Position numbers and translations under genes: made by a program | Assembly (NCBI GenBank): GCA_964187785.1 | Contig: OZ076409.1 | Coordinates: forward strand, 50,346,001 to 50,410,000 | Direction: 5' to 3' | Length of the DNA stretch: 64,000 nt | Source of the DNA: Amphiscolops sp. MND2022 | Taxonomy: Eukaryota | The notes under the pieces: model-generated | The model's database searches: none | What the model was told of the DNA's origin: nothing | What the model saw: the letters and a program-made list of their open reading frames with translations, nothing else | Shown here: positions 35,781-43,000 of the stretch, one piece after another | How positions within the stretch are numbered: the stretch's first letter is position 1 | Layout of the letters: each line of letters opens with the position of its first letter

Positions 35781-35970
35781 TTTTATACTACTTTGGTCAC
35801 GTGACTATTCCATATTTGGAAATGTTTACGCCTCGTTTTCCATAAAAGGAAGACATTTCCTTTTAAGGTAATGTTTGTGCGCTGTCATTCAAAATTTGTA
35901 TGTCATCCTTCCTTTTTAGGTAATGATTGCATTTCCTTTTATGGAAATCACGTGACTATTCCTTTTAAGG
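35781..35970. promoter_or_regulatory. Divergent promoter: six CArG boxes, two E-boxes, TATA box
   Basis: CC(A/T)6GG at 35810, 35840, 35859, 35911, 35935, 35961; CACGTG at 35798 and 35949; TATAAAA on the minus strand at 35781-35787. Confidence 0.7.
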
Positions 35971-36023
35971 TAACAATTCCATCTTTTCAGATTCATTTTG
36001 TTCAACAAAAACACAACGTTCAG

Positions 36024-36623
36024 ATGGCTGCTGTAATGATGCAAGTTGTTCCAAGTTTTTACTCTGTATACTCTACAAAGAGTGTACACATTTGTGCAAA
36101 CACATATGAAAAGTATCTTGTCAGCAAAGACTATTGTGTTGCACAACACGAAGATTCCATGTGTACTGTTCCCAATTGTAAATATCACATTTTGCTCATT
36201 GCAGAGAAGGATATCAATGTCTTGATGGAAAAATTGGACACTTTTTGTTTTACATATCAGTTAGTCGACTGCCTTTACACATTATTCAAGTATCGTTTCG
36301 ATGGCAAGGTTGTTACCAAAAATGGACAAGTGTTTGACAATATTGAACGAGCTGTACGATTCAATCAACGCCACAAGACGATTGAAAGGATGCCGAGTAT
36401 AGCAAAAAAGAGATTGTTGCGTAAAAAATACAAGCGACATTTACTGAGTTCGTTGCAAAAGACAATTTCAACACAGACGAGTGGATCAGTTTTCGCAGAC
36501 AGGATTGAACAAGTTAAAAAGACAAAATTTGAAGTAGAACTAATAAAAATTGTAGATTGTTTTTTAGATGGTTACGGTAATTATGATAGTAATTTAGTAT
36601 CTTTTAAAATTAAATCTTTGTAA
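36024..36623 (+). CDS. Polinton hypothetical protein
   Basis: Open frame 35871-36623; its 5' part overlaps the CArG cluster, so ATG 36024 is the more likely start. Confidence 0.6.
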   Translation: MAAVMMQVVPSFYSVYSTKSVHICANTYEKYLVSKDYCVAQHEDSMCTVPNCKYHILLIAEKDINVLMEKLDTFCFTYQLVDCLYTLFKYRFDGKVVTKNGQVFDNIERAVRFNQRHKTIERMPSIAKKRLLRKKYKRHLLSSLQKTISTQTSGSVFADRIEQVKKTKFEVELIKIVDCFLDGYGNYDSNLVSFKIKSL

Positions 36624-36624
36624 A

Positions 36625-36807
36625 CTAACCACTGTTTTCTTCAACGAAATGAGACTTGTAGAGGTCAATAGGAAGTCTCAACATGACAATAAATAGACCA
36701 ATGAGAGCAGCAATTGCAGCAACGGTTAGTAGGAACAACAAGAATGCTCCAATAGTATAAATCGTCCACTTTACTAAGTCACAAAAGTCGTCGGAACACT
36801 TGCTCAT
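36625..36807 (-). CDS. Small membrane protein (60 aa)
   Basis: ATG start and one long hydrophobic segment. Confidence 0.55.
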   Translation of the reverse strand: MSKCSDDFCDLVKWTIYTIGAFLLFLLTVAAIAALIGLFIVMLRLPIDLYKSHFVEENSG

Positions 36808-36831
36808 TTTTGACTGAAATTAAAATGCACA

Positions 36832-38665: not shown

Positions 38666-39291
38666 TAGACGTCGTAGTTGCTTTCAATGATTCCGCTCTT
38701 GCTCGATATAAAGTAGCGGTCCTTATACAGTTCGTACAGTTCGTTGTGACTGAGGTTGACAATTTCTGTCAATACAAACTGATTTCCCCTATATAGAAAC
38801 TTTTTCAATGAAAAACAACAATTCTTGTCTTTTTCAAAGCGGAAAGACAAACGCAAATGACGATCAGTATGCTCTTTTATATCTAGATAATAGTGTGAGA
38901 AGAGTTCGTCCTTCCACAGCGTAAAGCCAATCTCTTGTAATGGTTTCGGTAGGGGGTATAGAGTTGCCTTTCGTGCGTGGTCGTACTGTTTTAAAAAGTG
39001 ACGCAGTCTGTTGAGGGTCGCAGCGAGCTCTTTTTTGGTGATGGAAATTTCCTCGTCAAGGAAAAAGCGTTGTTGAGCTTTCAAGTCGCAAAATTTAAAG
39101 ACTTTGATTGCAAATAAATTTTTATTGGACCCCTTGCTGACTCGTACGAGACGATTGTCCGTCTTTGTAATGTCCAATATGTTGCGATAAAAGTACGAAT
39201 CAACGTCAGCTTCGTCCAAAGTTTGTTCTGGAACGTCTTCGTAAATTGAATACAGCAAAGATAGAGATGGAAGTTGATGTTTAACAGACAT
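38665..39291 (-). CDS. Hypothetical protein, possible tandem PC4-like repeats
   Basis: FAIKVFKF...ISITKKELAA and FSLKKFLY...VNLSHNELYEL units; likely start MSVKHQ. Confidence 0.55.
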   Translation of the reverse strand: MSVKHQLPSLSLLYSIYEDVPEQTLDEADVDSYFYRNILDITKTDNRLVRVSKGSNKNLFAIKVFKFCDLKAQQRFFLDEEISITKKELAATLNRLRHFLKQYDHARKATLYPLPKPLQEIGFTLWKDELFSHYYLDIKEHTDRHLRLSFRFEKDKNCCFSLKKFLYRGNQFVLTEIVNLSHNELYELYKDRYFISSKSGIIESNYDV

Positions 39292-39397
39292 GAACTGCTC
39301 TAAAAGAAAGTTTAAATTAAAATGAATAATGAAATTTAGTGTAGTGGATAAAAGCAAGGCCTACGTCGCCGCAATATTATGACAATGCGATAAACAG

Positions 39398-39781
39398 CAC
39401 GTGACTTTGCTTTTAACCACTACGCTAACAGCGTTGTTTATTTCCATTTATGGAAAGTAATTAAAGATGAAAGGGTAACAAGCTGTCAGCTACCCACGCT
39501 AATAATCTTTTATGGTTGCATAATTACTCCAATTGAGAGGTTTTCCCAGACTTATCGGCGTCTTTGCGAGGGAATTTGTTCCACTTGAGTGGTTTTCTCA
39601 GACAACGTGGCGTCCCCTGAGGGGAACTTGTTCCACTTGAGCAATTAACTTTGAGGGAGATTAAAAATGATTGACAGGTACTTGAGAGGGAACGCTGACG
39701 CTAGTGCTTAAATACTTTTTCCTTTTATGGAAGGCTAATCATTCCTTTTATGGTTCAGTGACTCATACCTTCCGTATATGG
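39398..39781. promoter_or_regulatory. Divergent promoter upstream of pPolB with CArG boxes and an E-box
   Basis: Perfect CArG at 39444, 39721, 39744; one-mismatch copies at 39506 and 39772; CACGTG at 39398. Confidence 0.6.
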
Positions 39782-40026
39782 TTGAATAATTACATAAACC
39801 AAGTTTTCAACCATTTTCATTTCATTATTCATTTCACATTTCTACAATCTAGTTGCTTGCTCTCAGATTAAATCTTATTACACTTTTCTGTTACAAATCC
39901 CGTTGCTTGCTTTCAGAGTTTCAATTTTCTGTTTAATTCTTTTTCCTTGCTTTCAGAGTTACAATTTTCTGTTCCAATTATATTTGTTTGCTTTCAGATA
40001 TACAATTGTTACACTTGCTGCTTAAA

Positions 40027-43000
40027 ATGCCTGCTCTTGATCGAAATCAAAAAGTTGCGTGTCCCAATTGTGGTACCAAAGTATCTAAGCAAAACCTTTC
40101 AGTACACAGAAAGAGTTGTTCCGTTGGGACATTATTTTGCTCTCAATGTCCCAATTTCTCAACCAAGTCCCAAAATGACTTAAATTATCACATTGCAAAG
40201 AAACATGGAACTTCCAAGCCCAAAACGACACACACTTGTAAAGTGTGTAAAGAGGAATTCGCTGGTTTTTATGCACTACGTCAACACAAAAGTAAAATGC
40301 ACGGTCTTAACTTGAAAAAAGCTGATTCATCTCCCCTTGTGGATGATATCCATGATGACAGTCTCAAGGATGAGCTACGTGCGTGTGGACACTTTCTCGT
40401 GGACTCTGAATTTGAACGTGGGCGACATAAAGTGTTTAATTACGCTGTTGAGACACTAAACACGGAAATTGTCAATAAAAAACTTGATCATTTCTTTAAC
40501 AACTTGAAATGTGCCGCGAAAGTTAACCTCGCATTTGGATTCATTTTAAAAAACTTGGAAGATGGACGTTACCGTTATTTTTACGCACACGAAAACAATA
40601 CTCTGCTGGATCGGTCACAACTTGTGTGCACCAAAGACGACTTGGCAAAATTGAAAAACATTGTCAATCAAACTGACGTAATTGAATCTTGTACCAGAGA
40701 AAGGATGAATACAAAGTGGAAATTTTACAAGCTCACCAATCTAACTGTGTTTGCTGCTTTGCTCAAAGACATTCCCATGGGTTGCAGAGATGCTGTACTT
40801 CCTGACCCACTACTAAAAAACCATAGTGTGAACTGTTTGACATTCGAGCAGAACACTAGACAACCCTATAACGACAACTTGTGTTTATTCAGAGCATTAG
40901 CGCTTCATCTCCACGGAAATGAAAAATTGGAGGAAGAGACTTGCAAATTGTTCAATTGTTATTTGGAAAAGTAAGGAGGAATAGAACCAGCAACCTTCCA
41001 AGGAGTCTGCGTGGACGATATTCCTATTGTTGAAGACCTGATTCAAGTCAATATCTTTCTTTACGATATCGATATTGTGGATGGATCAATTGTTGGTGAA
41101 CTCGCACGGAGGAGTGTTCAGAAGTATTGCAACACTGCCAGATTATTGCGTTACAATAACCACATTTGCTACGTCTCCAATATCAATGCATTATTTAAAG
41201 CTTATCGTTGTTCAACTTGTAACCAGTTTTTCAACAAAACTGGAAACTTGGAACGTCACTTGGTAATTTGCAAGGATCGGATCAAACACGTTTATCCGAG
41301 AAATGTTTATCAATTGAGGGAAACGCTGTTTGATAAACTGGACTTCTTTTCCATACCTTACACAAAAGAACAGCAATTGTTCAAAAACTTGGCCATCTTT
41401 GACTTTGAATCAATTTGTGTGAGAGAGGATCAATTCAGGGATACCGAGACAACACAGTGGATTGGGAAGCACGTGCCAGTATCTGTATCTATATCGTCCA
41501 ACTTGATTGAAACCCCAATATTTCTCTGCAATTCCAACCCGCAAGATTTGGTTGAGTCATTTGTTGTTGCTCTTGAGAGTTTAGCCGCACAGAGCAAAGC
41601 TCAAATGAAGCTACAGTTTTTAGATATCGAGACCAGCATCAAAAGCCGTCTTAATGCAATTTTTGCTGTACTCAATGAAAGACGTGGTCCACGAGAAACT
41701 GTGTTGGAATTTGAAGACGAATGTCTTGAGGTTGAAGAAAAAGATGTTTCTACTCAGTTCTTGCAAATGCAAAAGAATCAACTCCTTGACTTGCAGGAAC
41801 ACTTGGAAAGATATTGCAACGTGTTACCAGTCTTTGGCTTCAATAGTTCCAAATACGACATTAACCTTATCAAGCGTTACTTGTTACCCTTATTGGTTAA
41901 CGAGAGAGAGCTGGAGCCAACAGTAATTAAAAAAGCGAATCAATTTGTCTCTTTTAAATTTGGAGATGTTCAGTTGCTTGACATTTTAAATTTTTTGGGC
42001 GGAGCAACCAGCCTTGATTCTTTCCTCAAAGCTTACAAGACGTCAGAGACAAAAGGTTATTTCCCATACGAATGGTTCGACTGTCCTGAGAAGCTAAATG
42101 ATACACAATTACCTCCGTATGAATCATTTTTCAACAAGTTGCGAAATTCAAACCCCCTGGAGAGTGATTATACTGACTATGAAAAATTGCTCAAGAGTGG
42201 TTCAACACCAGAGTCTGCCCTGACCAAGTTGCGGTTGAGTCAACCTCCACTCACTGGGAAGCAAAATTATGAGTATCTCGTCAATATATGGGAGACTGAG
42301 AAAATGACTACGTTCAAAGACTTTTTGCGGTGGTACAATAACAAGGACGTCGTTCCCACACTGGAGGCTATGCAAAAAATGATTGCATTTTACCACAACA
42401 AAGGGATTGATATGTTGAAGCTTGGTTGTACTTTACCCAATTTAGCCAACATATGTCTCCACAAGTCAACGAATGCGAAATTTTATCCTTTCACAGAGAA
42501 CGATAAAGACTTGCTCGAAAAGATACGAGACGATATGGTTGGTGGTCCGTCCATTGTGTTTACAAGAAAAGCTGCTGTGAACGAGACGCATATCCGGAAT
42601 TCGGCAAACGTTTGCAAGTCAATAGTGGGCATTGATGCTAGTCAGCTTTACCCCTTCTCAATGTGCCAGGAAATGCCTACTGGTCTATACACGCGATGGG
42701 ATCTCGATCCAGAGTCTGGTAGATTCAGACCCCGCCAGAACAAGACGAGGAGCTTTGAGAACATGGTAATGTCTTACTATCAACGAATCAGACCAGACTG
42801 TAAAATTGTCAGCTTTTACACCACAGGAACACAGAAAAAGATTGACTGCTTCAGCGTTGACGGGTTCTGTGAACATTGTAACACTGTATTTGAAGCTATG
42901 GGGTGTTATTATCATTACTGTCCCTGTCAAGAAGCACGTCCTTCTCTTACAGAGGAAGAGATTCAGAGGGGAACGAAAAAGAGAGAGATGGATGAGTTGC

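Follow-up and report, generated by a model that had tools for sequence, protein, structure and literature searches.

An ErbB-ligand-like gene and two clusters of SRF-type CArG boxes in a Polinton of Amphiscolops

In a stretch of 64,000 nucleotides of contig OZ076409.1 from the Amphiscolops sp. MND2022 assembly (GCA_964187785.1; the whole stretch is hereafter called the window), we found a Polinton/Maverick element of 17486 bp (positions 27513..44998), which carries the gene of a short EGF-type protein together with two clusters of CArG boxes of the SRF type. The initial annotation had joined these features in a feed-forward circuit, in which the element-borne ligand would act via EGFR and MAPK signaling on the SRF-responsive promoters of the replication genes, and had named SRF-driven muscle expression as an alternative. 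Our analysis tentatively favors another arrangement, in which SRF-type promoter activity would occur in muscle or wound-activated cells, with neighboring cells as the target of the ligand, which would possibly draw in stem cells.

Perfect CArG boxes, defined as CC(A/T)6GG, were counted against 1000 dinucleotide shuffles, and the whole element holds 13 of them where 1.04 are expected, a number reached in 0/1000 shuffles. Cluster 1 (35782..35970) lies between the divergent open reading frames (ORFs) of 192 aa (minus strand) and 199 aa (plus strand) and consists of a minus-strand TATA-like word at 35782, six perfect boxes at 35810, 35840, 35859, 35911, 35935 and 35961 (35810-35970; 0.02 expected) and E-boxes at 35798 and 35949. 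A unit of E-box and CArG box is present twice in this cluster (35798/35810 and 35949/35961), both times with a gap of 4 bp. Cluster 2 (39398..39781) is located between the divergent 208-aa ORF (minus strand) and the DNA polymerase gene (plus strand) and comprises an E-box at 39398, three perfect boxes at 39444, 39721 and 39744 (39444-39753; 0.07 expected), an AP-1 site at 39759 and a near-CArG with a single core mismatch at 39772; its last perfect box ends 274 bp 5' of the polymerase ATG (40027). A chance origin of the clusters was discarded, as 0/1000 shuffles reach either count. TT stands to the left of all nine clustered boxes compared with none of the six scattered boxes in the window (background 0.136), and GG(A/T)A to the right of eight of the nine compared with two of the six (background 0.192). 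Such flanks presumably resemble those of SRF and Mcm1 sites. Flanks and clustering are supported as those of selected SRF-type sites, as far as can be judged from the DNA. A single promoter-plus-gene unit in duplicate was rejected as the source of the two clusters, since the 192-aa and 208-aa ORFs are without BLASTP similarity (E 0.63).

The three E-boxes (35798, 35949 and 39398) read CACGTGAC, which we take to be the USF/TFE type, and a classical myogenic module of CArG plus E-box was ruled out, with no CAGCTG or CACCTG in either cluster. Of the initial description, the two CArG/E-box clusters, one of them ahead of the polymerase, hold up with six and three perfect boxes; both turned out to be divergent, and their E-boxes not myogenic. 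ERK reaches SRF mainly via ternary complex factors (TCFs), which need an Ets motif, (C/A)(C/A)GGA(A/T), beside the CArG box; for MRTF, the box alone suffices (PMC3310822). In fibroblasts, strong or multiple CArG matches and AP-1 (or TEAD) go with MRTF, while Ets, NFY and SP1 go with TCF (PMC4018493). The CArG part of a TCF-SRF serum response element is present in both clusters. Free Ets hexamers, counted within 40 bp of a box and compared with shuffles that kept the boxes fixed, nevertheless sit at chance, with one versus 0.60 expected in cluster 1 and one versus 0.64 in cluster 2 (P 0.45 and 0.47); one free core abuts box 35911, and the hexamer of cluster 2 shares bases with the near-CArG. 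Neither cluster contains a strong TCF word or an EGR word. The proposed MAPK link to the SRF clusters is consequently unsupported, because TCFs need an adjacent Ets motif, and the EGF gene is also without a CArG box of its own. By contrast, the six and three perfect boxes, with one AP-1 site in cluster 2, fit the tendency described for MRTF/myocardin-SRF target promoters.

The EGF-like gene of the initial annotation was confirmed at 37284-37532 on the minus strand and encodes 82 aa, with hydrophobic residues 8-24, a six-cysteine EGF domain (39-75) and a tail of 7 residues. There is one N-terminal hydrophobic segment (mean 2.38 over residues 8-24), which may be a signal peptide or a type II anchor, and no second membrane segment. 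The cysteine spacing of 7-5-10-1-8 agrees with what we take to be the ErbB/EGFR ligand pattern, CX7CX4-5CX10-13CXCX8C with a YxGxRC end. The Pfam EGF match is weak (E 0.059, below the cut-off), the best PDB match of the single sequence is HB-EGF (E 3.9e-7), and with a profile of 24 family sequences the top 28 of 32 PDB matches were ErbB ligands or their mimics, which ranked above Notch and urokinase. Judged from these comparisons, the protein looks like a true ErbB-type ligand.

A search with the single sequence gave 26 clusters, with the exact protein on 18 contigs, and suggested a gene confined to a close subfamily, which was overturned by the 471 clusters obtained with the family profile. 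Six cysteines and GxRC are kept in 88 of the 120 diverged copies listed among these 471, and in 71 of the 97 sequences that keep the pattern (88 diverged and nine close ones) the protein ends 7 residues past the last cysteine. P0218, a host-like precursor of 237 aa, has a similar EGF domain followed by a membrane segment and a cytoplasmic tail; its C-terminal tryptophan is common to the EGF family of the element, while the stalk and the cytoplasmic tail of P0218 are absent from the protein of the element. A tree of 39 rows and 48 columns, from which P0250 was dropped as it does not show the pattern, lacked the strength to tell where the gene originated. The group of P0197, P0212, P0224 and P0233 represents additional multi-copy families of short proteins with an anchor, an EGF domain and the same 7-residue tail.

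Indirect evidence on both features comes from related elements. The 199-aa ORF next to cluster 1 is represented by 1715 clusters, and at least 120 matches sort into three families, the present one and two more, with about 70% identity between each and the rest. In the other families, the promoter was followed in gene calls that read through it. Upstream extensions of at least 30 aa were seen in 13 of 103 diverged matches (among the matches listed, of 1715), and 10 of these 13 contain CArG-compatible words, with 16 matches in 597 residues versus 1.15 expected. Words of the HVTFPFME type in the diverged peptides keep the distance from E-box to box seen in HVTIPFKV of the present copy, and the central bases differ yet remain A/T wherever the codon fixes them, with CC, GG and flanks constant. 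The EGF gene and the 199-aa ORF were paired by contigs of identical size in bp, which gave six pairings among the 38 entries of the close family and, in the diverged families, four among the 120 listed matches versus 0.045 expected; the shared contigs measure 16342 and 28032 bp for the second family, and 135088 bp for the third. Ligand and cluster 1 thus appear together in three families of about 70% identity, and none of the families compared was seen to have clearly just one of the two. The co-occurrence proposed at the outset as a check of the circuit is therefore seen, for cluster 1.

Expression of the EGF gene could start from cluster 2 or independently of it. The gene is the fourth of a same-strand block, and its start lies 1912 bp from the nearest box of that cluster, with two poly(A)-like words in between (39121 and 37576). 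The 66-bp gap directly 5' of the gene (37533..37598, minus strand) contains ATTAAA, a stretch rich in U and, 5 bases ahead of the ATG, an AG; no CArG, E-box or Ets motif was found in it. Read-through combined with trans-splicing and a small separate promoter are both possible. In another copy (P0015), the start of the 192-aa ORF is fused to EGF, so that the genes there must be either ordered differently or rearranged, whereas in P0199 a stretch like the 165-aa ORF is fused to a diverged EGF, implying the gene order of the present copy.

For the host response, the acoel Hofstenia is the available point of reference. Its nrg-1 is a single-EGF ligand, induced by wounding and produced by muscle only, and after loss of nrg-1 or egfr-1 neoblasts fail to gather at the wound, with proliferation, egr and nrg-1 not lowered (PMC13046036). 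The effect of neuregulin-EGFR signaling in Hofstenia is on cell position more than on division. The proliferative host state suggested initially is at odds with this work, in which the pathway localizes neoblasts without driving their proliferation. Moreover, the label of a feed-forward circuit does not fit, as what was drawn amounts to a linear cascade, which becomes positive feedback if EGF is under the same promoter. The alternative named in the initial annotation, SRF-driven expression of the muscle type, suits the anatomy better.

Every regulatory and signaling step of our preferred reading is inferred. The clusters would be read by dimers of SRF, joined at the E-box by a partner of the USF/TFE type, via the actin-regulated MRTF/myocardin route. 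Activation of the clusters would yield the polymerase and a PC4-like protein, and replication-side genes would be on in muscle or wound-activated cells. These cells would also express the EGF gene, either through transcription that runs on from cluster 2 or from a small promoter of the gene itself, and its product could be displayed or released with no need for a membrane stalk. The ligand would then activate host EGFR on neighboring cells and not feed back onto the promoters of the element, and EGFR activation in an acoel would gather dividing stem cells, the cells at which an integrating element has to arrive if it is to be passed on. An extended version, which we regard as unlikely, has the element mimic the host wound signal as a unit: SRF promoters would wake it in injured muscle, and a captured neuregulin-like ligand would call pluripotent stem cells there, providing a route to the germ line, with any ERK feedback serving to amplify.

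Several points weigh against expression in muscle or wound-activated cells with a ligand acting on neighbors. The SRF cofactor rules derive from mammalian fibroblasts, and Hofstenia is at best a relative of the host. The E-boxes are not of the myogenic kind. Since the boxes are partly duplicates of each other, the flank probabilities overstate their independence. The promoter evidence from other families consists of peptides, not DNA, and covers cluster 1 only; common descent accounts for the co-occurrence of ligand and cluster 1, and coupling is not needed. Within the 26 close EGF clusters, only 9 keep the full six-cysteine and GxRC pattern. Seven more Ets cores, counted as flanks, overlap boxes via their TTCC edge, overlapping SRF and ELK-1 sites have reportedly been described in primate CMV promoters, and TCF input to the clusters is possible. 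Finally, wound-induced ERK activation in Hofstenia requires nrg-1, so that a link from ligand to ERK exists (10.1101/2024.12.10.627832), and the available text of this source does not mention SRF. A path from ligand to ERK in an acoel is plausible; that from ERK to SRF is a proposal.

It is rather doubtful, in our view, that the ligand acts as the trigger of a positive feedback loop, running from EGFR-ERK in the same or nearby cells to SRF at the clusters and on to the polymerase, perhaps also EGF. Ligand and clusters are both real and co-inherited, and the EGF gene belongs to a same-strand block that begins at cluster 2 and has short gaps and an acceptor-like site. The free Ets core at box 35911, the seven box-overlapping cores and the AP-1 site of cluster 2 would suit such a loop, as would the position of nrg-1 upstream of wound ERK in Hofstenia (10.1101/2024.12.10.627832) and, in human cytomegalovirus (HCMV), SRF/Elk-1 enhancer sites (PMC7690695) and an EGFR-EGR1-UL138 feedback (PMC6855412). 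However, free Ets motifs are not enriched, the clusters are without a strong TCF or EGR word, no CArG box lies directly 5' of EGF, and the poly(A)-like words intervene after cluster 2. In addition, RNA interference against egfr-1 in Hofstenia left nrg-1 and egr not lowered and proliferation unchanged (PMC13046036), and co-inheritance needs no coupling. This last point leads to two unrelated adaptations kept together by descent, an option we likewise consider somewhat improbable, in which the SRF sites time expression to the germ line, the early embryo or a broad cell state and EGF is a separate accessory for survival or growth. SRF indeed drives MERVL at zygotic genome activation without a ligand (PMC11960700). 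In the window, a BEL long terminal repeat (LTR) has three AP-1 sites (0/5000 shuffles) and a Gypsy LTR two CRE sites (2/5000), with no ligand among the long ORFs of either element; these LTR arrays, which exceed chance, served as a control, and host-factor arrays are ordinary for mobile elements here. The EGF clusters (471) are also fewer than those of the 199-aa ORF (1715). Against this option, the numbers of clusters for a short protein and a long one do not compare as prevalences, and no family was seen that clearly has one feature and lacks the other.

A further option, in our opinion very improbable, is that the boxes are a degenerate internal repeat read by a protein other than SRF, e.g., an element-encoded factor or YY1, for the control of transcription or replication. 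Part of cluster 1 is in fact a duplicated unit, and the 199-aa protein adjoining it is conserved and uncharacterized. The core of YY1 sites is CCAT, which is found on one strand in six of the nine boxes. Against a copied repeat, the six central bases vary among boxes and between families yet stay A/T where set by the codon, while CC, GG and flanks are fixed, which is the pattern of CArG boxes.

The ends of the element are those described for Polintons, in which terminal inverted repeats and a target duplication of 6 bp go together with (AGT)2 or (AG)3 termini (PMC8097293). It starts and ends with AGTAGT...ACTACT and is flanked on both sides by GACGAC, and its inverted repeats (left arm 27513..28123, right arm 44388..44998) span 612 bp and are 99% complementary. 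A packed block with small ORFs on the minus strand (28160..33596) includes an adenain-like protease (28160-28549; Pfam Peptidase_C5, E 0.0065, below the cut-off), a probable major capsid protein (28551-29894) and a probable minor capsid protein (30275-31078), the latter two assigned by size and position without a profile match. Pfam further identified both the retroviral-like integrase (31081-32019; rve, E 1.7e-10) and the packaging ATPase (32515-33345; Pox_A32, E 9e-7) that mark membership in the Polintons, each above the cut-off. At the other end, a plus-strand gene (40027..44361) encodes a probable DNA polymerase B of the protein-primed type with N-terminal zinc fingers, in a frame of 1444 codons with one internal stop at 40972-40974. 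Its exonuclease and polymerase motifs were recognized by eye; Pfam, PHROG and PDB gave no polymerase match, Pfam and PDB for the long part of the frame. Rfam returned no family within the element.

Apart from these core genes, the middle of the element contains several less well-defined ORFs. The 192-aa ORF facing cluster 1 (35056..35634, minus strand) possibly encodes a PC4-like single-stranded DNA-binding protein, for which an ESM Atlas lead is the only hint (score 0.88; PF02229 on 31% of cluster members). The ATG of the conserved 199-aa ORF (36024..36623, plus strand) lies 54 bp past cluster 1; nothing was found for this ORF in Pfam or the ESM Atlas, and its low-confidence model (pLDDT 39.7) gave no usable fold. 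A hydrophobic ORF of 60 aa (36625..36807, minus strand) ends the same-strand block with the EGF gene, and ORFs of 165, 121 and 208 aa (37599..39291, minus strand) lie between this gene and cluster 2. The model of the 208-aa ORF shows a repeated pattern of four strands plus a helix at low confidence (pLDDT 46.6), and a fold search gave no match at E 0.001. Eight TT(A/G)CAACG(T/C)GT words, spaced by about 31 bp, lie between the stop of EGF and the 60-aa ORF (36849..37241); they constitute a third motif array of the element, and the read-through tail of P0013 suggests that this region is common to sister copies. Three pyrimidine-rich units of 40 bp with an acceptor-like TTTCAG precede the polymerase ATG (39878..40007, plus strand), and similar words are found ahead of the 199-aa, 208-aa, 60-aa and EGF starts. 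These words could be trans-splice acceptors or parts of core promoters.

Beyond the assembly, IMG/VR contained no relative of the capsid or EGF protein and no match to the E-box-CArG unit, and none of the 40 loci with a paired-CArG pattern in this database had a tblastn match to 11 element proteins. JGI metagenomes provided two short contigs of the capsid region, without promoter or EGF region. In IMG/VR, tandem CArG arrays with TTT/AA flanks were observed near the contig end of two contigs of 130-135 kb, L007 (2326-2535) and L028 (from about 767), and for the nearby ORFs only a methyltransferase and an E3-binding domain were identified. We take these arrays to be Mcm1-like.

The Polinton is preceded in the window by two retrotransposons. 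The Gypsy element (3618-19797) has LTRs of 2.5 kb that are 99% identical and carry two CRE sites each; gag (16246-17685) and pol (11270-16405) are on the minus strand, and plus-strand ORFs at 8297-11133 may represent an antisense cargo gene. The BEL/Pao element (19799-26218), whose left edge adjoins the end of the Gypsy LTR, has a broken pol and three AP-1 sites per short LTR. On the other side, 50646-62930 is occupied by tandem and dispersed repeats of 1-2 kb and by arrays of a 22-bp unit with inverted arms, probably other non-autonomous elements.

These findings bear on the activation of Polintons and on their way into heritable cells, and the lineage offers a defined and conserved promoter module plus ligand that is amenable to existing acoel tools. 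Should the ligand prove active, studies of regeneration in the host could be influenced by the hundreds of copies of an EGFR ligand that its elements carry; if the wound-mimic reading is true, regeneration signaling would give a selfish element its way into the germ line. Viruses with EGF mimics are known, as are viral promoters driven by SRF, while their pairing in an integrating element was not found in the literature searched. In this search, with most subscription papers outside it, neither an EGF ligand nor a CArG cluster was reported for a Polinton.

Animal Polintons/Mavericks and adintoviruses have inverted repeats, (AGT)2 ends, the 6-bp duplication, integrase, ATPase and, probably, protease and polymerase in common with the present element, whereas the accessory genes described for them resemble PLA2, gasdermin and cupiennin (PMC8097293; PMC8502044). 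A term search of both papers gave no EGF or growth factor, and the passages covered contain no promoter motifs of the elements. The MERVL LTR is likewise a mobile-element promoter with an SRF motif, but this retrotransposon of the early mouse embryo has one predicted site and no ligand (PMC11960700). The major immediate-early enhancer of HCMV resembles our case as a viral promoter with SRF sites in an EGFR-wired virus; however, the Elk-1 site of HCMV is a defined one, and the receptor is modulated by the virus (PMC7690695; PMC6855412), while the Polinton features nine CArG boxes with USF/TFE-type E-boxes, Ets motifs that are not enriched and an encoded ligand. Hofstenia nrg-1 is likened to the EGF gene by its single-EGF-domain architecture in an acoel, nrg-1 itself being a host gene with a membrane segment (PMC13046036; 10.1101/2024.12.10.627832). 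A virus-borne EGF-like protein is also the point of likeness to the growth factors of poxviruses. These viruses transcribe in the cytoplasm. Vaccinia VGF is described as an EGFR-binding and EGFR-activating protein that enhances motility and spread (PMC13705586). Ligand activity of the Polinton protein, which has no membrane segment after the EGF domain, is predicted, and unlike a poxvirus the Polinton is an integrating nuclear element that uses host transcription factors, so that feedback onto its own promoters would be possible.

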